From: an uncultured Nitrosopumilales archaeon
GTDB taxonomy: Archaea > Thermoproteota > Nitrososphaeria > Nitrososphaerales > CAYNJB01
DNA length: 29,380 bases
Reading direction: 5' to 3'
Assembly: GCA_964397515.1 (NCBI GenBank)
Contig: CAYNJB010000001.1
Location: 1 to 29,380 of the forward strand
In this document: piece by piece, positions 3,654 to 29,380 of the stretch
How the letters are laid out: each line of letters starts with the position of its first letter
Numbering within the stretch: position 1 is the first letter of the stretch
Notes under the pieces: model-generated
Database searches by the model: none
What the model was told of the DNA's origin: nothing
The model's input: the letters and a program-made list of their open reading frames with translations, nothing else
Translations under genes and position numbers: made by a program

Positions 3654-4679
3654 TTAATTTATCCATTTCTCAAGACTGTTGGATATTTTCTTTTTTGATT
3701 CTGTCAATTTAACAATTGAAGATCTTATCCGTTCCTCTGAGAAATCTCGGTCTTTGGATAAGAAGTTAAGTAAGCCATCTTCATCAATATCATTCCAAGA
3801 AAAAGGTGGTGGAGAAATAACTTTTGGATTAAGGAAAATATCTCGGATTGATTCATAATTTATTTCTTTAAGCGCTTGTTTAATATCCGGTATTTTTTCT
3901 AAACATCTATACGATTTAATATATTTTATAGCTTTAGCAGGGCCAATGCCTTTGAATCCTCCTGGGTTAAAATCTGTGCCCAAGAGAATGCCAAAATCAA
4001 CTAATTGTTCCCTTGAGAGTTGAAGGCTGGATAGTACGTTTTGCAAAGTTAGTTCTTCTGGAGACAAAATAATGTAAATAGGCCTATTTGGGAGCTTTCT
4101 TTTCCCAGAGATTGTAATGTTCCTTAACAGTCTTTTTGCCCCGAATAGAATTGAGTCATAATCTTGGCTAACTGCATCAGTCGCTAAACCGATATTTGTT
4201 AGGTGAGCAGCAGTAGCTTCACCTTCAGAGGGGGCGTCAATCCAAGGTATACCTAAAAGTTGAAGTAAAGTTTTAGTGTCTTCAATCATATAGTTTCTAA
4301 GAACTGAAGTTGCTTGAGCATGTTTTTTTGCTTCTTTGAATTTACCTTTTGACAAAGCTTCTGTTAGTTTTATTTCAGCTTTTTCCTTAATTTTATGTCT
4401 ACGTGTAATTTCTGTTGATTTTAATTCAGATGGAGGCCCATCAAAAATATATACGGGTTTTATGTTCAAAGATAAGAGATTAACTGTTCGATAAAAAATT
4501 CCACTAAGATGACTAGTCACCCTGCCTTCATGGTCTCGAAGGGGTTCTCCTGCTTCACCTCGGATTATTGAAAGGAATTGATATAGAGCATTATAAGCAT
4601 CAATAGCAAAAATCCTACTAGACAGTGATTCTAAAGATACTTTCTTTCGTTGAACTATATCTCCAAGATTCACACCCAA
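3654..4679 (-). CDS. fen: Flap endonuclease 1
   Basis: MGV start, AIDAYNALYQFLSIIR, PVYIFDG, APSEGEA, SQDYDSILFG, GTDFN, GIGPAKA, C-terminal PIP-like SNSLEKWI; TTG start with GTGA 7 nt upstream. Confidence 0.97.
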   Translation of the reverse strand: MGVNLGDIVQRKKVSLESLSSRIFAIDAYNALYQFLSIIRGEAGEPLRDHEGRVTSHLSGIFYRTVNLLSLNIKPVYIFDGPPSELKSTEITRRHKIKEKAEIKLTEALSKGKFKEAKKHAQATSVLRNYMIEDTKTLLQLLGIPWIDAPSEGEATAAHLTNIGLATDAVSQDYDSILFGAKRLLRNITISGKRKLPNRPIYIILSPEELTLQNVLSSLQLSREQLVDFGILLGTDFNPGGFKGIGPAKAIKYIKSYRCLEKIPDIKQALKEINYESIRDIFLNPKVISPPPFSWNDIDEDGLLNFLSKDRDFSEERIRSSIVKLTESKKKISNSLEKWIN

Positions 4680-5070: not shown

Positions 5071-7284
5071 TTAACCATAGAAGCTTTGTTTGGATTTTTT
5101 AGGAATATGTACATTTAGATTCTGAGAAATCGAAGAATACCACGATTCAACTTCTTTTGTTATTGAAGGCCTTACATTATCTAAAGCATATTTGAAATCA
5201 GACAAGTCTACTTTATTTGAGAGGTTAGTTGTTCTAATAGCATTTATCCCTGCTGTTCTAACAAGAGATTGAAGATCCGCACCGGTATATCCTTCAGTAT
5301 CTCGAGCAATAATATTAAGAGAGACGTTATTGGCTAAACTCATTTTTGATGTGATTAGTTTTAGAATGTCATACCTGCCTTTTTCGTCAGGCGGTGGTAC
5401 AAAAATTAACAGATCAAGTCTACCTGGTCGCAAGATCGATATATCTAATAGATCAGGCCTATTTGTGGCGGCTAAAACGAAGAGACCTGGAATGTTCATA
5501 GATGCGTCTGTCTCGGTAAGTAATTGGCTTAATACTCTCTCAGATGTAGATGAATCAGTCCCATCAACTGATCTTGAACGAACTATAGAATCAACTTCAT
5601 CTAAGAAGATAATACAAGGAGTTGAGGATTTTGCTTTCCGAAATATGTCTCTTATCGCTTTCTCTGATTCTCCAACCCATTTTGATAAGACTTCGGGTCC
5701 CCTTATTGTTATGAAGTTTGCTCCGCTTTCGTGAGCTAAAGCTTGAGCGAGCAATGTTTTTCCACATCCTGACGGTCCGTACATAAGGACTCCTGAGGCT
5801 GGCTTGATTCCGATTTTCTTGAATCGTTCAGGATGATTGATTGACCAAATAACGTTTTCTTTAAGACTCTGCTTGATTTTTTCAAGACCGCCTACTTGAT
5901 CCCAGGTTATTCTAGGGGTATCAACGTAGAATTCCCTTAACGCGCTTTGGACTATTTCCCTCATAGCTTCTTTAAAGTCATCAAAATTTACTTCAATCTT
6001 TTCAAGTAGTTCAGATGGGATTTTTTCCGCATAATCTATATCAGGGATGAATCGCCTCATAGCTTTAAGTGCCGCCTCACGGGTTAACGCTTGAATATCG
6101 GCGCCAGAATATCCATGAAGAATACCTGAGAGAGAGACTAAATCAACTTCTTTTGATAGGGGCATTCCCCTTGTATAGATAGTTAATATCTCAAGTCGTG
6201 ATGAGGGATTAGGTACACCAATATCAACTTCACGATCAAATCGACCAGGCCTTCTTAAAGCAGAGTCAACAGAGTCTAGTCTATTTGTGGCACCAATGAC
6301 AATAACCGATCTTCGTTCTGAAATTCCATCCATTAAGGCAAGAAGTTGAGCTACTACTCTTTTTTCAACATCTCCAACTACATCGTCTCTTTTTGGAGCT
6401 ATGGAGTCAATCTCATCAATAAAGATAATACTTGGGGTGTTTCCCTTAGCTTCCTTGAATATTTCTCTCAAACGAGCCTCCGTTTCACCATAATATTTAT
6501 TCATGATCTCTGGACCGCTAACTGAGAAGAAGCTTGCTTCAGATTCATTTGCCAACGCTCGGGCTATTAGAGTTTTACCGCAACCAGGGGGACCGTGAAG
6601 AAGAACACCTGACGGGGGTTCAATCCCCAAACGTTGAAAAATTTCTGGATGTCTAAGAGGAAGTTCAATAATTTCTCTCAGCCTCTTAATTTCATAATTT
6701 AAGCCGCCTACATCATCGTATGTTACCCTTTGGCCGGTAGATGTAGATTCAATTTCTGTAGATATAGTTATTTTTGTATTTTGATCAATCTTAACTATCC
6801 CTTTTGGATTAACCTTAGCAACTTTAAAGTCAATAGGGTTACCAAGAATCATAACTAAGAGGTCTTGTCCTTCCAAGATAGGAGTGCCTTTTAGTCTATT
6901 TCTAACAAATTGACAGAATTCGTCATCTGTAGTTAATTTGTCATCTAATAATTGAAGAGCAACAGATTTAGCAATCTTCGTTCCCACTTTTTTAACAGTT
7001 ATAGAGTCATTCAGAGCTACGCCGGCGTTTTTCCTTGTCTGGCCATCAATTTTAATAATGTTTTGTGATTTATCATTACTATTACCATTATCATTATCAT
7101 TATCGTTTGGCCAAACTATCGCGACCGCAGATTGTCGTCCTATGAGCTCAACTATAGTTCCCTCGTTTATTCCAAGAAGTATTATAGAATAGGGGTCTAA
7201 TCTAGCTCTAGATTTGCCAATATCTCTCTGATTTGCTTCTGTTACTCGAAGCTGTATTGATCTTATTTTTGGATCGCGAGTCAA
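5071..7284 (-). CDS. cdc48: CDC48/VCP (VAT) double-AAA ATPase
   Basis: N-domain ([14 protein letters not shown]), Walker A GPPGCGKT and GPSGCGKT, Walker B IFIDEID and IFLDEVD, RPGRFDR / RPGRLD Arg fingers; C-terminus ...FYG is an HbYX-type motif; TTG start. Confidence 0.97.
7069..7104. repeat. Degenerate hexanucleotide microsatellite inside cdc48 (ATTATC x3 plus ATTACC, ATTACT, TTTATC)
   Basis: Direct reading; on the minus strand it encodes [12 protein letters not shown]. Confidence 0.75.
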
Positions 7285-9173: not shown

Positions 9174-11264
9174 TCACCTCCTTTTTGGTTTGAACCGCTT
9201 CAAAGTCAAGGAATTGCTGACAACGCTTACTGAGCTCATCGCCATAGCTATGGCTGCGAAGATAGGGCTTAGCAATCCTGTAGCTGCTATAGGGATAAAA
9301 GCTGTGTTATAAGCAAATGCCCAAAATAAATTCTGTTTAATCTTACTCATTGTCTTCCTGCTAAGCTGTATTGAGCTGACTACATCACGTAAATCATCCT
9401 TGATAAGCACTATTCCGGCTGTTTCTACTGCTACATCTGTCCCGCTTCCAAGTGCAATTCCTATATCTGCTTGAGCTAAAGCAGGCGCGTCATTTATCCC
9501 ATCACCGACCATAGCAACAATCTTGCCTTCCCCTTGGAGTTCCTTGATTACCGAGGCTTTTTGACCAGGAAGTACTTCTGACACCACTTTCTTGATACCC
9601 AGTTGTTGACCTATTGCCTCCGCGGTCCTCTGGTTATCACCGGTGAGCATAATCACTTCTAGTCCCATTTCTTTCAGATCGTCCAACGCTTCTTGCGCAT
9701 TATCTTTGACCGTGTCAGCTACAGCGATCAGGCCAGCTAAACTTCCATTAAGGGCGAGAAACATAGTTGTCTTTCCTTCGCGTTCCATATTCTGAATCTT
9801 TTTTTCTTGAGATTCTATGGCTATATTATTGTTCAGCATTATTTTTCTGTTGCCAAGTAGAATCTCTGTTTGATTGTGTCTTGCTTTTACACCTTGGCCT
9901 GGGACTGCTTCAAAGTTGGTAGAGTCTGAGATTTTGAATCCTTTTTCTTCTGCTTTTTGGACTATGGCTTCTCCAAGTGGATGCTCAGAACCTTTCTCTG
10001 CTATCGCAGCGTAACTAATTACATCTTCCTCGGTTTTGTTTGAAAGTGATATTACATTTGTTACTGACGGTACGCCTTTGGTTACAGTGCCAGTCTTGTC
10101 AAACACTATGGTCTGCAGTTTGTAGGTTTTCTCCAAATTTTCTCCACCCTTTATCAGAATCCCGTTTTCTGCTCCCTTTCCTGTTCCTACAATTATAGCG
10201 GCCGGTGTAGCAAGGCCTAACGCGCAGGGGCAAGCTATTATCAGAACTGCTACTAGAGCGGTGAAGCCTTGCAGAAATGAGCCAGCGTATAATGCCCATC
10301 CTGTGAACGCTGCAAGAGCAATTGTTATCACGATAGGTACGAAATAGCCCGAGACTTTATCGGCTATTCGCTCTATTGGTGCTCTGGCAGAAGACGCTTC
10401 TTCTACCAGTCTAACAATCTGTGCTAATGTGGTATCTGACCCAACCTTAGATGTCTGTATTTTAAGCATACCATTCTTGTTTATTGTTGCACCTATGACT
10501 TCGTCGCCGACTTTTTTATCCACAGGAATGCTCTCACCTGTGATCATTTTTTCGTCTACACTTGAGTACCCATCTATTACAATGCCATCGACAGGTATTT
10601 TTTCACCTGGTCGAACTATTACAGTCTCATTAACTGTGATCTCTTCTATAGGTACTTCGATCTCCTTTCCTTCCCTTATCACTTTAGCCATCTTAGGCTG
10701 TAAATCGAGTAGTTTTCTAACTGAATCAGACGCCTTCCTCTTCATTGAATGTTCAAGAAGTTTCCCTAGAAGTATGAAGCCTATGATAAGGGCCGCTGAT
10801 TCAAAATACACACCTCTAGCATTTGGAGGTACTACATTCGGGAAGAAGGTAACTAGAGTACTGTAACCCCAAGCTGCAGATGTTCCAACAGATATGAGCG
10901 TATCCATATTGGATGAACGAGCCTTGATAGCATGAAAAAAGCCTATGTATAACTTTCTTCCAGCTATGAATTGAACAGGTGTTGCGAAGAGAAATAGCCA
11001 AACCTCTAAACTAAAAAATTGAGGTAAAAGTAGGACTAGTTGGTGAAGACCTAACATGTCAGCCATACTGAATAATGCAATAGGTATTCCAAGAATAAAG
11101 CTAAGAGCAGTCATACGCTTAAGGCTTTTTACCTCCATCTCAGGTTTAAGAAATGTATCCATGCAACTCTTAGCACAAAAATAGAAAGTGGTTCCTCTAA
11201 CAGTTGCATGTAATGCTTCTGGGCTCTCATGAACGAACATTCCACATATAGGATCTTTAGCCAA
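9174..11264 (-). CDS. copA: P1B-1 type Cu(+)-translocating P-type ATPase with an N-terminal YHS/TRASH domain
   Basis: N-terminal [39 protein letters not shown] and MAMSS transmembrane motifs; TTG start with GGTG upstream. Confidence 0.95.
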
Positions 11265-18854: not shown

Positions 18855-19562
18855 TTGAAGATAGGAGTAGTTTTCTCAGGAGGTAAAGATAGTACCCGAG
18901 CTATCTACGAAGCTCAAAAACAAGGAGATGAAGTATGTTGTCTTATTACCATCAGTCCAATTAGCTTAGATAGTTTCATGTTTCATTATCCAAATATAAA
19001 GTGGACTAATCTCCAAGCAAAAGCTATGAATATACCATTGATAAAACAACAAACACGTGGAGTAAAAGAAGATGAACTTAGAGATCTAAAATTTGCTATT
19101 AAAAAAGCTAAAGATAAACATGATATACAGGGAATATATACAGGAGCGGTAGCGAGCAGTTATCAGAAGATAAGATTTGAAAAAGTGGCTTCTGAACTTG
19201 AATTGAAATGTATTAGCCCATTGTGGAATTTAGACGGTGAAAAAATATTGAGAGATTTAGAGCAACTTGATTTTGAGGTAATCATTGTAAGTGTAGCAGC
19301 AGCGGGATTAGACAGTAAGTGGCTAGGCAGCTATATTAATTCAGAATCTATAGAAAAATTAATGCATATCCATAATAAATATGATATTAACCTTTCATTT
19401 GAGGGAGGAGAAGCAGAAACTTTTGTTTTAGATTGCCCCTTGTTTAATAGAAAAATTGAAATTCTAGAAGCTGAACGTATTTGGGAAAAAGAATCAGGAA
19501 TATTTTTAATACATAAAGCAAGACTCAATTCAAAGGAAACTGTTAAAGATATAGTATCATAG
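18855..19562 (+). CDS. dph6: Diphthine-ammonia ligase (Dph6, PP-loop ATPase)
   Basis: FSGGKDS PP-loop, SFMFH, GAVASSYQ, PLW, EGGEAETFVLDCPLF; TTG start with AGGATGA 7 nt upstream. Confidence 0.88.
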   Translation: MKIGVVFSGGKDSTRAIYEAQKQGDEVCCLITISPISLDSFMFHYPNIKWTNLQAKAMNIPLIKQQTRGVKEDELRDLKFAIKKAKDKHDIQGIYTGAVASSYQKIRFEKVASELELKCISPLWNLDGEKILRDLEQLDFEVIIVSVAAAGLDSKWLGSYINSESIEKLMHIHNKYDINLSFEGGEAETFVLDCPLFNRKIEILEAERIWEKESGIFLIHKARLNSKETVKDIVS

Positions 19563-23213: not shown

Positions 23214-24722
23214 TTATTTGCCTTTTTTAATAAATAATTTGTTGATTCCGTTGAGAAGGGCTTCAACACTTGAGACTACAATATCTTCTCCAGTACTACG
23301 TGCTGAAGCAAAATTTCCTTTATTGTCTCCGACTTTAACAAGAACTTCAGACAAAGCTTCTGATCCCCCTGTTAAGGCTTCAAGTCGGTATTCTGTAAGA
23401 GAAATTTTAGCTATTTCTTCAGTAATTTTATGTATTGCTTTTACAGCTGCATCTACTGGTCCGACACCTGTTTCGGAAGCTACATAAATTTGGCCTTCAA
23501 GATCTATCTTTACTGACGCAGTAGGAACAACATTTGTTCCGGTCATCACTGAGAAATCAATTAATTTCACCTTTTTTTTACTTTCAACAGGGTTTTCAAC
23601 TATAGATCTAGATAATGCTTCAATATCTGAATCAGTTAAGGATCTTCCTTTATCACCCATTTCCTTAATTTGATTCATGATAATTTTAAGTTGTTCATCT
23701 GTGGGGGAGAAGCCAAGTTCATTAAGTTGAGATTTTATTCCATGAGTACCAGCATGTTTTCCTGCTTGAATCCACCTTCTTCGTCCTACAAGGTCTGGGT
23801 CGATAGGTTCGTAAGTAGTAGGCATGGATAATACACCATGGGTGTGAATGCCTGATTCATGACCGAAAGCATTGTCGCCTACAATAGCTTTGTTTGGTTG
23901 AACTACGACACCCGTCAGTTTTGATACGAGCCTGCTGGTTTCATAGATAAGCTTTGTATTTATTTTTGTTTTCTTTGAATAAAAACAATGAAGAGCCATA
24001 ACGACTTCTTCTAATGATGCGTTCCCTGCTCTTTCACCTATACCATTGACAGTAGCATGAATTTGTGATGCTCCAGCTTCAACAGCCGCAAGAGAATTTG
24101 CAACTGCTAGACCAAAATCATTATGGCAGTGAATAGCTATAGGTGTTTTAATAACAGATTTTATCTCTTTTACTAAGGAACTCATTTTTGATGGAGTTGC
24201 TACACCAACTGTGTCAGGAATGTTTATTCGATCAGCGCCTGCATTTACTACTTCCTTAAGAAATTTTTTTAGAAAATGTGGATCTGAACGAGTAGCGTCT
24301 TCAGCTGAAAATTCTACAGTTACTCCATGTTTTTTAGCATATTCAACTCCAGTAATTGCGTTCTTTAGAGCTTTAGCTTTAGTGATTTTTAGCTTATGTT
24401 TAAGATGTATATCAGATGTTGCTATAAATAAGTGAATACTTTCTACATCGCACGCTAGGGCTACATCTATATCTTTTTTGTCAACTCTAGCTAAGGCACA
24501 TATTTCGGCGTTCAAACCTGCTTTAGCAATAGATTTGACAGATTTGCGTTCTCCGCGTGAAGTTATTGGAAAACCAGCTTCTATAGCGTCTACACCAAGT
24601 GTATCAAGTCGTCTTGCAATCTCTAATTTCTCATCTACGGTTAGAGAGACTCCGGGTGTCTGTTCTCCATCACGGAGAGTGGTATCGAATATTCGAATAT
24701 GTTGATTTGTTTGTTTGGGTAT
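23214..24722 (-). CDS. leuA: 2-isopropylmalate synthase; start extended beyond the ORF-track call, no canonical start codon
   Basis: Frame is open upstream of the 24515 TTG and encodes IRIFDTTLRDGEQTPG...IEAGFP, then HCHND, GERAGNA, HESGIH and a regulatory domain (GVGPVDA, GGSEAL). The nearest upstream in-frame stop is at 24768-24770. ATA at 24722 is used as a provisional start (502 aa). Citramalate/homocitrate paralog status is not excluded. Confidence 0.88.
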   Translation of the reverse strand: MPKQTNQHIRIFDTTLRDGEQTPGVSLTVDEKLEIARRLDTLGVDAIEAGFPITSRGERKSVKSIAKAGLNAEICALARVDKKDIDVALACDVESIHLFIATSDIHLKHKLKITKAKALKNAITGVEYAKKHGVTVEFSAEDATRSDPHFLKKFLKEVVNAGADRINIPDTVGVATPSKMSSLVKEIKSVIKTPIAIHCHNDFGLAVANSLAAVEAGASQIHATVNGIGERAGNASLEEVVMALHCFYSKKTKINTKLIYETSRLVSKLTGVVVQPNKAIVGDNAFGHESGIHTHGVLSMPTTYEPIDPDLVGRRRWIQAGKHAGTHGIKSQLNELGFSPTDEQLKIIMNQIKEMGDKGRSLTDSDIEALSRSIVENPVESKKKVKLIDFSVMTGTNVVPTASVKIDLEGQIYVASETGVGPVDAAVKAIHKITEEIAKISLTEYRLEALTGGSEALSEVLVKVGDNKGNFASARSTGEDIVVSSVEALLNGINKLFIKKGK

Positions 24723-24727
24723 CGTAT

Positions 24728-25210
24728 TTACCCCCGTTGTAGAGCTGTAATGCCTGTTCGAGATATGTCACGTATGCCAAAACTTGATACTAGTTTAATG
24801 AAAGAATCAATTTTAGTTGGATCACCCGTAATTTCAACTGTTATGGTTTCATTTGATACGTCAACGATTCTACACCTATATATTTGGGAGAAATTCAGCA
24901 CATCTACTCTAGTTTTTTGATCTAAAACATTTAACTTGATCAAAGCTAGTTCTCTTACTACAGATGTTTGTTGTTCAAGTAAAGTTATTTTTACAACATC
25001 TATAAGTTTACCAAGTTGCTTTATTAGTTGTTCAACTGTTAATTCATCACCGTTTACAACTATGGTCATTTTGGCAAGTCCGGGTTTCTCTGTGCGCCCC
25101 ACGGTTATACTTTCTATATTGAAGCCTCTTCGTCTAAACATGTTTGAGGCTCTAAAAAGTACTCCCGGTTTGTTTTCAACGATAGTAGAAAGTATGTAAA
25201 GATCGCCCAT
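24728..25210 (-). CDS. ilvH: Acetolactate synthase small regulatory subunit (two ACT domains)
   Basis: VENKPGVL...FRRRGFNIESITVG, EQLIKQLGKLIDV, RELALIK, EITGD, RTGITALQRG. Confidence 0.95.
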   Translation of the reverse strand: MGDLYILSTIVENKPGVLFRASNMFRRRGFNIESITVGRTEKPGLAKMTIVVNGDELTVEQLIKQLGKLIDVVKITLLEQQTSVVRELALIKLNVLDQKTRVDVLNFSQIYRCRIVDVSNETITVEITGDPTKIDSFIKLVSSFGIRDISRTGITALQRG

Positions 25211-27230: not shown

Positions 27231-28889
27231 TTGAGGAGCGATGTTATTAAAAAAGGGTTTGATAGGGCCCCGCATAGAAGTCTTTTAAAGGCGTTGGGAC
27301 TTGTTGATAGTGATTTAGAAAAACCGTTTATAGGGATTGCTAATTCATTTGTAGAAATAGTTCCAGGCCATAGTCATTTACATGAACTCGGTAAGATTGT
27401 GAAGCAAGGAGTAAGAGAAGCAGGTGGTATGCCTTTTGAGTTTAACACAATAGCTGTAGATGATGGGATTGCTATGGGTCACTTGGGGATGAGATATTCC
27501 CTCCCAAGCAGGGAATTGATTGCTGATTCGATAGAAACAATGGTTCAAGCACATTGTTTTGATGGACTTGTTTGCATAACTAATTGTGATAAAATTGTTC
27601 CTGGAATGCTTATGGGTGCAGTACGAGTTAACATACCGACTATTATTGTTAGTGGAGGACCAATGCTAGCTGGGAAGACATCTAAAGACAAAGTGATTGA
27701 TCTTTCTTCTGTGTTTGAAGCGGTTGGTTCTCACCAGGCTGGACTAATAACAGATTCTGAATTCAAAGAAATAGAGGATTTAGCTTGTCCAAGTTGTGGT
27801 TCCTGTTCCGGTCTTTTCACTGCAAACTCAATGAATTGTTTGTGTGAAGCCTTGGGTATATCTTTACCAGGTAATGGAACTATACTTGCGGTTTCTCCGG
27901 ATAGAATTAAACTTGCTAAAAAAGCTGGACAGAGTATCCTTAGATTAATTGATCTAGATTTGAAACCTAGGGACATTATCACAATGGAATCTATAGACAA
28001 TGCTATGATTTTAGATATGGCAATGGGTGGATCAACTAACACAGTATTACATCTCTTGGCCGTTGCTAAAGAATCAGGAATAGAATATTCATTAAAGAGA
28101 GTTGATGATCTAACTGGAAAAGTACCTCAGATATGTAAAGTTAGTCCAGCGTCACAATATCACATGGAAGATGTGGATAGAGCAGGCGGAGTAAGCGCTA
28201 TTCTCAAAGAGATAAGTAAAAAAAATATTCTACAATTAGATCAGGTCACTGTTACTACTGAAACCCTTGCAAATAACATTAGAAATTCTGAAGTAAAAGA
28301 TAAATTAGTAATTCATTCTATAGATAATCCATATCGGTCTAATGGAGGGCTTGCTGTTTTTTACGGAAATTTAGCTCCTGAGGGAGCTTTACTTAAAATT
28401 GGAGCAGTGGAATCAGACATTATCCATACAGGTAAATCGGTTATTTTTAATTCACAAGACTCAGCTATCAAAGGAATTAAATCAGGTTTAATTAAAAAAG
28501 GTGATGTTGTAGTTATTAGATATGAGGGACCAAAAGGTGGTCCAGGAATGCCAGAGATGTTAGCACCGACAGCTATGATTGTAGGACAGGGACTTGGTAA
28601 GGATGTTGCACTTCTGACTGATGGAAGATTTTCAGGGGCAACTAGAGGGATTTGTATTGGACATATTTCACCAGAAGCCGCACTAGGAGGCCCAATAGGA
28701 TTTCTTGAAGAGGGGGACATAATAACAATAGATTTGCCTAAAAGAAAAGTTGATGTAAAAATTTCCAGTGAAGAACTTGAAGATAGGAGAAAAAGATGGG
28801 TTGCACCAAATCCGAAAATTTCAACAGGATATCTTGCAAGGTATACAAAGTTTGTTTCTTCGGCTAGTAATGGAGCGGTACTGCAATAA
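27231..28889 (+). CDS. ilvD: Dihydroxy-acid dehydratase
   Basis: [77 protein letters not shown]; TTG start. Confidence 0.97.
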
Positions 28890-28931
28890 TATATCTATTA
28901 TTAGAATTCCGATAAAAAATTAGTTAGATAG

Positions 28932-28946
28932 CGAAAAATTTAAATC
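28932..28946 (+). promoter_or_regulatory. Putative BRE/TATA promoter for cimA
   Basis: CGAAAAA directly followed by TTTAAATC (28939-28946); a good archaeal BRE-TATA match implying a TSS near 28968-28971. Confidence 0.6.
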
Positions 28947-28985
28947 TAAACACTTAAACTGGAACTTCAAATAGGTGAAAAGCGA

Positions 28986-29380
28986 ATCGATTCAACCATT
29001 GAAGTTCTTGACACAACATTAAGAGATGGATCTCAAAGTTACGGTGTATCATTTTCTCTTCAAGATAAATTAAGTATAGTCAAAAGACTTGACCAAACTG
29101 GAATTCAATATATAGAAGGAGGTTGGCCTGGATCAAATCCTAAAGATGTAAGTTTCTTTAAAAAAGCTAAGAAACTTAAACTAGACAATTCTGAAATAGT
29201 TGCATTTTCTAGTACAAAACATAAAAAAAACTCAGTAACTAAAGACTTGGCACTGAATTCTATAATAGAAGCAGAAGTAGAAACTGCTGTGATTTTTGGA
29301 AAAACCTGGAAACTTCATATTGATAAGGTCTTAAACTTAAGCATTAAAGATAATATCAGGATAATAGAAGAATCTATTTC
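28986..29380 (+). CDS. cimA: Citramalate synthase (LeuA-related, TIGR00977-like), 3'-truncated by the window edge, no canonical start codon
   Basis: IEVLDTTLRDGSQ, YIEGGWPGSNPKD, AFSST, IFGKTW; the GGWPGSNPKD signature is typical of this citramalate synthase subfamily. In-frame stop at 28947-28949; ATC at 28986 is used as a provisional start. Confidence 0.8.
   Translation, partial: MDSTIEVLDTTLRDGSQSYGVSFSLQDKLSIVKRLDQTGIQYIEGGWPGSNPKDVSFFKKAKKLKLDNSEIVAFSSTKHKKNSVTKDLALNSIIEAEVETAVIFGKTWKLHIDKVLNLSIKDNIRIIEESI

Follow-up and report, generated by a model that had tools for sequence, protein, structure and literature searches.

A conserved AUC codon behind a Shine-Dalgarno motif is the probable start of the citramalate synthase gene cimA in Nitrososphaerota

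The main finding of this study is that cimA, which enters the 3' end of the window—the whole stretch of 29,380 nucleotides that was analysed—probably initiates at an AUC codon positioned by a Shine-Dalgarno (SD) motif, is read there by the initiator tRNA and has been selectively kept as a weak start, a reading to which we assign a probability of roughly 80%. Initiation at this AUC had been proposed by the initial annotation, and it is now supported by comparative data, from which we infer it. In the sequence of events that we envisage, a promoter of the gene's own (28930–28946) would give a cimA mRNA with a leader of ~17 nt, in which AGGUGA would base-pair with 16S rRNA at its 3' end, so that the AUC at 28986 would come to lie in the P site. 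The initiator Met-tRNA would then read AUC with a mismatch at the third position—a step suggested by the anatomy of the site and by what is known of near-cognate initiation—and the protein would begin Met-Asp-Ser-Thr-Ile-Glu-Val-Leu-Asp-Thr-Thr. The AUC would be an old feature of Nitrososphaerota cimA under purifying selection; most likely, it serves to make translation of the first enzyme of the pathway low or sensitive to the stringency of start selection (aIF1), a selective reason that is speculative.

The layout of the cimA 5' end offers no conventional start. The frame is closed upstream by an in-frame TAA at 28947–28949 (plus strand), and frame checks in the window found no ATG, GTG or TTG in this frame between that stop and the segment encoding DTTLRDG (29010–29030). 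The intervening codons are ACA CTT AAA CTG GAA CTT CAA ATA GGT GAA AAG CGA ATC GAT TCA ACC ATT GAA GTT CTT, after which cimA reads GAC ACA ACA TTA AGA GAT GGA from 29010. As in AUH-start genes of the infC/pcnB type, there is no canonical in-frame start before the essential residues of the protein, the earliest being a TTG at 29247 (codon 88), past the catalytic DTTLRDG motif. A near-cognate codon does stand at a functional distance from an SD. The SD-like AGGTGA at 28973–28978 (plus strand; GGTGA at 28974–28978), complementary to the archaeal 16S 3' end, is followed by a spacer of 7 nt (28979–28985) and then by ATC at 28986–28988 (plus strand), the proposed initiation codon, and relatives have GAGGT or GGAGG(T) in the same place, 5–7 nt upstream. 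Re-reading the sequence with frame checks confirmed every coordinate given earlier for this region, namely those of the TAA, the GGTGA, the ATC, the out-of-frame GTG ORF and the A4 run (28978–28981). Counted from the ATC, the 5' part of cimA occupies 28986–29380 on the plus strand and continues past the end of the window. The upstream gene in the ORF list is ilvD (dihydroxy-acid dehydratase; 27231–28889, plus strand), with a probable TTG start and with ILVD_EDD Pfam families on its homologues in L161, L162 and L251.

Directly 5' of the TAA lies AGCGAAAAATTTAAATC, a putative BRE/TATA-like core promoter (28930–28946, plus strand; CGAAAAATTTAAATC at 28932–28946), whose role is suggested by archaeal promoter geometry and by a conserved distance described below. 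The archaeal TATA box is centred ~26–27 nt before the transcription start. In the window, the TATA-like element is centred ~43 nt 5' of the ATC, which predicts a leader of ~17 nt that contains the SD and a transcription start near 28969, 3' of the in-frame CTG at 28959. Leaderless initiation, with the start codon within ~5 nt of the transcript 5' end, would not agree with this predicted leader and was provisionally set aside.

Comparison with orthologues gave a consistent picture. Close relatives were gathered through a metagenome scan, protein-cluster look-ups and two DNA-pattern scans, while protein-pattern scans of genome contigs gave relatives of at most 56% identity among the matches listed and an exact look-up of the IlvD protein gave no match. 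The nearest proteins outside the window's own species are 59–63% identical to the query, and we compared nine lineages (61–63% identity in protein), the window's own and L162, L165/L166, L167, L249, L250, L251, L252 and L278. The eight relatives read AGCGTTAAACTTATAT...(A)GAGGTAAAC(G/C)(G/A)A ATC GAT TC(A/G) AA(G/A) (A/G)T(C/T) GAT (GTG/GTC/ATA) CTT GA(C/T) ACA, with the SD-like GAGGT kept 5' of ATC GAT. ATC GAT is invariant in nine of nine lineages, none of which shares a conserved in-frame canonical start with the others; the orthologues thus have the same ATC rather than a canonical start at this place. The promoter argument advanced earlier against CTG 28959 is strengthened, since a BRE-like AGCG lies 55–57 nt 5' of the ATC in every lineage of the clade (56 nt in the window). 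The eight relatives have no in-frame near-cognate codon between the predicted transcript start and the ATC. The pattern of substitution changes abruptly at the codon. The 25 columns 5' of the ATC vary without a period, and 3' of it the variable columns at codon positions 1, 2 and 3 number 3, 1 and 12 of 14, the earliest downstream change of third-position type falling at codon 3. Since this periodicity starts just after ATC GAT, the cimA frame opens at the ATC, or at the GAT at the latest. The third base of the ATC itself is invariant, although third positions mostly vary elsewhere.

These alignments also bear on the main rival explanation, which we consider improbable: that the true start lies farther downstream, within the first beta-strand, at either ATT 28998 (codon 5) or, in some relatives, GTG at codon 7, and that ATC GAT TCA ACC is leader. 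Gene callers do use the GTG of codon 7 in six lineages, giving proteins that begin MLDTT or VLDTT, PGAP took a downstream ATC for P0017 and P0093, and homology to solved structures of LeuA, homocitrate synthase and CimA starts only at residue 5. However, neither candidate is conserved. Codon 5 is ATC, ATT or GTC, and codon 7 is GTG in six of the nine lineages, GTC in L162, ATA in L165 and GTT in the window, so that it behaves like an ordinary codon for Val or Ile. Third-position variation is already present from codon 3 onward (TCA/TCG, AAG/AAA), SD spacing would become 19–25 nt, and in distant homologues the real initiator methionine aligns with the ATC position (MDYIEILDTT in P0015).

The case for the AUC extends beyond the nearest relatives. 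Four deeper lineages likewise open cimA with ATC GAT downstream of an SD-like motif: L264, from hot-spring Nitrososphaeria (GGAGG+7+ATC, immediately preceded by TAA), L269, from groundwater Thaumarchaeota (TGA directly upstream), L170, from Aigarchaeota (GGGGGTG+5+ATC), and L314 (GGAGG+7+ATC, with TGA directly upstream), where PGAP already annotates the same ATC as the start of P0097. Altogether, 13 sampled lineages have the ATC, with protein identities as low as 49%. In a maximum-likelihood tree, 20 of 20 Nitrososphaerota sequences fall into one clade (support 98/98), and the ATC occurs in four of the five deep branches of this clade. Both archaeal outgroups, Euryarchaeota UBA186 and Methanomethylicota, start cimA with ATG.

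The picture differs in a second clade, 56–58% identical to the query, in which the codon 7 nt after GGAGGT (hereafter the SD+7 position) is TTG in L254 (388–406), TTA in L253 (103–121), L276 and L309, or TTC in L255 (376–394), L298, L263 and L290, and is always followed by GAT or GAC; an independent case of TTC is L169. Neither TTC nor TTA is a near-cognate of AUG, from which both differ by two mismatches. Among the sampled sister lineages, a strong start codon has been regained nowhere at the SD+7 site, and the near-identical proteins L254 and L309 differ in having TTG and TTA, respectively. Other starts are at hand in some of these genes. In the TTA/TTG lineages an in-frame ATA precedes that codon by two codons and lies just 1 nt past the SD; PGAP uses it as the start of P0010. 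L290 has an in-frame GTG two codons upstream of its TTC, at the position aligned with the first residue of P0020 (HK02M2; protein only). In L255 and L298 a TAG stop lies two codons upstream and the sole near-cognate is a downstream ATC. This clade counts against the AUC reading: either the start is elsewhere in it, or position may matter more than codon identity.

A second kind of signal overlaps the codon. A perfect 10-bp palindrome, GAATCGATTC (28984–28993), spans the start codon; it is extended to 12 bp, TGAATCGATTCA, in the allele with TGA directly upstream (described below) and in L269, and all ATC lineages share its 8-bp core, AATCGATT. The window has a single copy of GAATCGATTC, which gives no hint of a regulon there. 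In the RNA, UCGAU (28987–28991) could pair with AUUGA (28998–29002) in a small hairpin (28987–29002, plus strand) that encloses two bases of the start codon. Across lineages this hairpin has 5–7 bp between coding-region bases 1–7 and 12–18. In it, 81% of the cells are paired, versus 75% in shuffles and 27–52% when slid, and one pair covaries: that of start base 1 with base 18, which is A-U, U-G or U-A. We treat the hairpin as a weak lead only, because the peptide I-D-x-x-I-D/E largely forces the pairing whatever the codon choice. Nevertheless, the strict invariance of the C of the ATC and of the GAT could stem from the overlapping palindrome or hairpin instead of from start function.

Two related readings build on these observations. 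According to the first, position sets the start and any NUN codon at SD+7 (AUC, UUC, UUA or UUG) is accepted, or else the site is under the control of a factor bound to the palindrome or hairpin. The spread of TTC (L169, L255/L298, L263/L290), TTA (L276, L309, L253) and TTG (L254) with an unfailing GAT or GAC next to it, the L254/L309 pair and the variation of the base 1–base 18 pair would all fit such a scheme. Against it, the TTA/TTG lineages may simply start at their upstream ATA and L290 at its upstream GTG, the hairpin is mostly dictated by the peptide, and we know of no precedent; we judge it slightly less credible than a downstream start. The second, broader reading, which we find unlikely on balance and put forward tentatively, is that cimA of Nitrososphaerota has long been kept at a purposely non-canonical initiation site, that the start is defined by the SD+7 position together with a central U, that the codon has drifted among AUC, UUC, UUA and UUG, never AUG or GUG, and that the site lies in a palindrome or hairpin that is a possible target of a regulator. 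If true, entry into isoleucine synthesis would be controlled in these archaea at this site, at the level of translation.

The whole-protein score and the set of domains place the gene product among the citramalate synthases, and it would accordingly condense pyruvate with acetyl-CoA to (R)-citramalate. The intact cimA of L081 (2537–4123; 528 codons) scores 599 bits against TIGR00977, the NCBIfam equivalog model for citramalate synthase, versus a cut-off of 450, and the next-best model, NF002085 (LeuA), gives 287 bits, under its own cut-off of 517. Residues 5–524 match model positions 2–521, and the N terminus counted from the ATC is thus only three residues longer than the model. Pfam domains HMGL-like (PF00682), HCS_D2 (PF22617) and LeuA_dimer (PF08502) all score above gathering. 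It resembles CimA of the Geobacter/Methanocaldococcus type in its full set of domains, its DTTLRDG motif, a score that exceeds the equivalog cut-off and a neighbourhood of ilvB (on the opposite strand), ilvD, cimA and ilvC. Its best homologues are Nitrososphaerota citramalate synthases, which makes the source organism an uncultured marine member of this phylum. This evidence makes it very improbable that cimA is a decaying or untranslated pseudogene, as the shortening of the gene to 441 aa by automatic callers (P0003) might suggest. In addition to the intact 528-codon frame of L081 and a TIGR00977 score above the cut-off, the frame is open in 23 of the 23 relatives examined, 22 of which have a complete ORF of 523–542 codons, and variation at third positions is strong.

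Sequencing error as the cause of the missing start is excluded. Six further independent assemblies—the JGI metagenome contig L081 (100 kb), the ENA contig L161 and Logan contigs of four public marine runs (X1, X3, X4 and X6)—have the same A4 run and the same ATC with no indel, and across 28600–29380 the compared assemblies show no insertion or deletion. L081 is 99% identical to the window over 201 aligned bases, and word depths of the Logan contigs are 12.6 for X1, 7.8 for X3 and 15.2 for X6. Neither an A5 run nor an ATG at 28986, two outcomes that would have overturned the initial annotation, turned up in any of them. The sole informative difference is a C/T polymorphism at 28983 (plus strand; position 2534 of L081 and 1237 of L161), where the window, X1, X3 and X4 read CGA and L081, L161 and X6 read TGA, a stop directly 5' of the ATC. 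In strains with the TGA allele nothing 5' of the ATC can be translated in frame, which removes CTG 28959, ATA 28971 and a hypothetical A5 frame. A stop directly before the ATC recurs in four independent lineages, as TGA in the window's species, in L269 and in L314 (298–300), and as TAA in L264.

Two explanations that look upstream of the ATC are left with hardly any credence. A single extra A would indeed put the GTG at 28975 in frame (MKKRIDST...), by way of a true A5 run or of a programmed frameshift from the GTG ORF, but seven assemblies agree on A4, the A5 frame would meet a stop in the TGA allele, the GTG is missing from all relatives, no upstream start is conserved in any frame and there is no slippery site in 28986–29022. 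Near-cognate starts at CTG 28959 or ATA 28971, both in frame after the TAA, are cut off by TGA 28983–28985 in conspecific strains and are not conserved in relatives; moreover, the CTG lies 5' of the predicted transcript start and the ATA has no SD. Programmed ribosomal frameshifting of the prfB/dnaX type was rejected as a model for this gene, the GTG ORF being confined to the species, with no conserved leader start and no slippery heptamer. That out-of-frame ORF (28975–29022, plus strand; 15 codons) is probably meaningless. Where the window has GGTGA, relatives read GGTAA, which confines the GTG with its short ORF to the window's own species, and the suggestion that an out-of-frame GUG competes with the AUC is not supported. 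A four-codon mini-ORF, GTG CAC GAG AGG TAA, overlaps the SD in L162 (1238–1252) and L167 only and is not conserved.

What supports the ATC as the start codon is thus its invariance, its place at SD+7, the codon periodicity that begins just after it and the stops immediately 5' of it in L081, L161, L264, L269 and L314. Several known systems help to place it. The closest are infC and pcnB of E. coli, whose conserved AUU start is likewise an Ile codon one base off AUG that stands behind an SD and is conserved among orthologues, and which are thought to be decoded by the initiator tRNA with weak and potentially regulated translation. The differences are that cimA is archaeal, with fidelity ensured by aIF1, aIF1A and aIF2 rather than by IF3, that its codon is AUC and not AUU, and that its start is proposed from sequence comparison. 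Furthermore, cimA encodes a biosynthetic enzyme, to which the autoregulation of infC, in which IF3 polices its own start codon, is inapplicable. In E. coli, AUC initiates at ~1–2% of the level of AUG, with methionine at the N terminus (10.1101/063800). Counting against an AUC start, reviews of archaeal initiation name no start codons besides AUG, GUG and UUG (PMC7531240), and discrimination by aIF1 against codons other than these has been reported (PMC6237735, PMC8211752). There is also a likeness to eukaryotic initiation in poor context or at non-AUG codons under the control of eIF1, the archaeal start-selection machinery being of the eukaryotic type; low levels of factor 1 favour suboptimal starts (PMC6237735, discussion). 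By this analogy, the conservation of a weak start could make CimA synthesis depend on the stringency of initiation. Unlike in the eukaryotic system, there is no scanning and the SD would set the position, and the link to aIF1 is conjectural throughout. Our literature search found no description of AUC starts in archaea or of a conserved ATC position in cimA.

On present evidence, the ATC of cimA appears to be a new archaeal example, deeply conserved, of an already known feature, the near-cognate start codon. It would mean that a near-cognate AUC has been kept at one gene across a phylum, including relatives of the ammonia oxidisers as well as Aigarchaeota. Such a codon would offer a natural substrate for learning how aIF1 and aIF2 police start codons, and it hints at a throttle, set at translation, on the enzyme that opens the citramalate route to isoleucine.

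Another consequence concerns annotation. NCBI translation table 11 allows ATC and ATA as starts, and PGAP, in agreement with our reading, begins P0097 of L314 at the same ATC. It differs in choosing another ATC or ATA as the start of P0017, P0093 and P0010, inconsistently between genomes, and a single phylum-wide position is not recognised. The same-species protein cluster, P0003, is a truncated call of 441 aa with seven members, and the calls of relatives are either truncated (P0039, P0047) or begin MLDTT or VLDTT. In a survey of the best 120 homologue clusters of cimA (P0003–P0122), 13 are without DTTLRDG, a further 24 start just one or two residues ahead of this motif, and 16 are extended upstream, with an internal ...I-D-[SYQ]... 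at the ATC position that is in many cases preceded by G-G, which looks like the SD read in frame. Automatic callers fail systematically on Nitrososphaerota cimA. About one-third of the public calls for this enzyme in Nitrososphaerota are shortened or misplaced, often with loss of DTTLRDG, and shortened calls can make the pathway seem absent in metabolic reconstructions of uncultured members of the phylum.

Finally, an SD-led weak start for cimA fits the local style of the genes around it. Its AGGTGA ties for the longest SD match before any candidate start in the window, and SD fragments lie 6–8 nt before candidate TTG starts of six other genes: fen1 (3654–4679, minus strand; XPG_N/XPG_I, a FEN1-type nuclease), dph6 (18855–19562; diphthamide synthase, with Diphthami_syn_2 from residue 1), a CDC48-like ATPase (5071–7284), a P-type ATPase (9174–11264), ilvB and an AN1 zinc-finger/M50 protein (2040–2816). 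For fen1 and dph6 the arrangements are GTGA+7+TTG and GATGA+7+TTG, just as earlier pointed out. Genes that start with ATG are mostly without an SD, which suggests two classes of gene in the window, one with weak starts led by an SD and one with leaderless ATG starts. The window contains no tRNA genes, Rfam gave nothing relevant and a look for the cimA locus in RNA runs found no match. The cimA paralogue leuA (region 24690–24770, minus strand) likewise has no in-frame ATG, GTG or TTG from an in-frame TGA to IRIFDTTLRDGEQ, and its best candidate start is ATA 24722, with GGGGGT + 7 nt upstream. This case looks lineage-specific, because leuA of L167 has in-frame GTG and TTG candidates. With its ATA at SD+7, leuA of the window may share the control by position and central U that we raised as a tentative reading for cimA.
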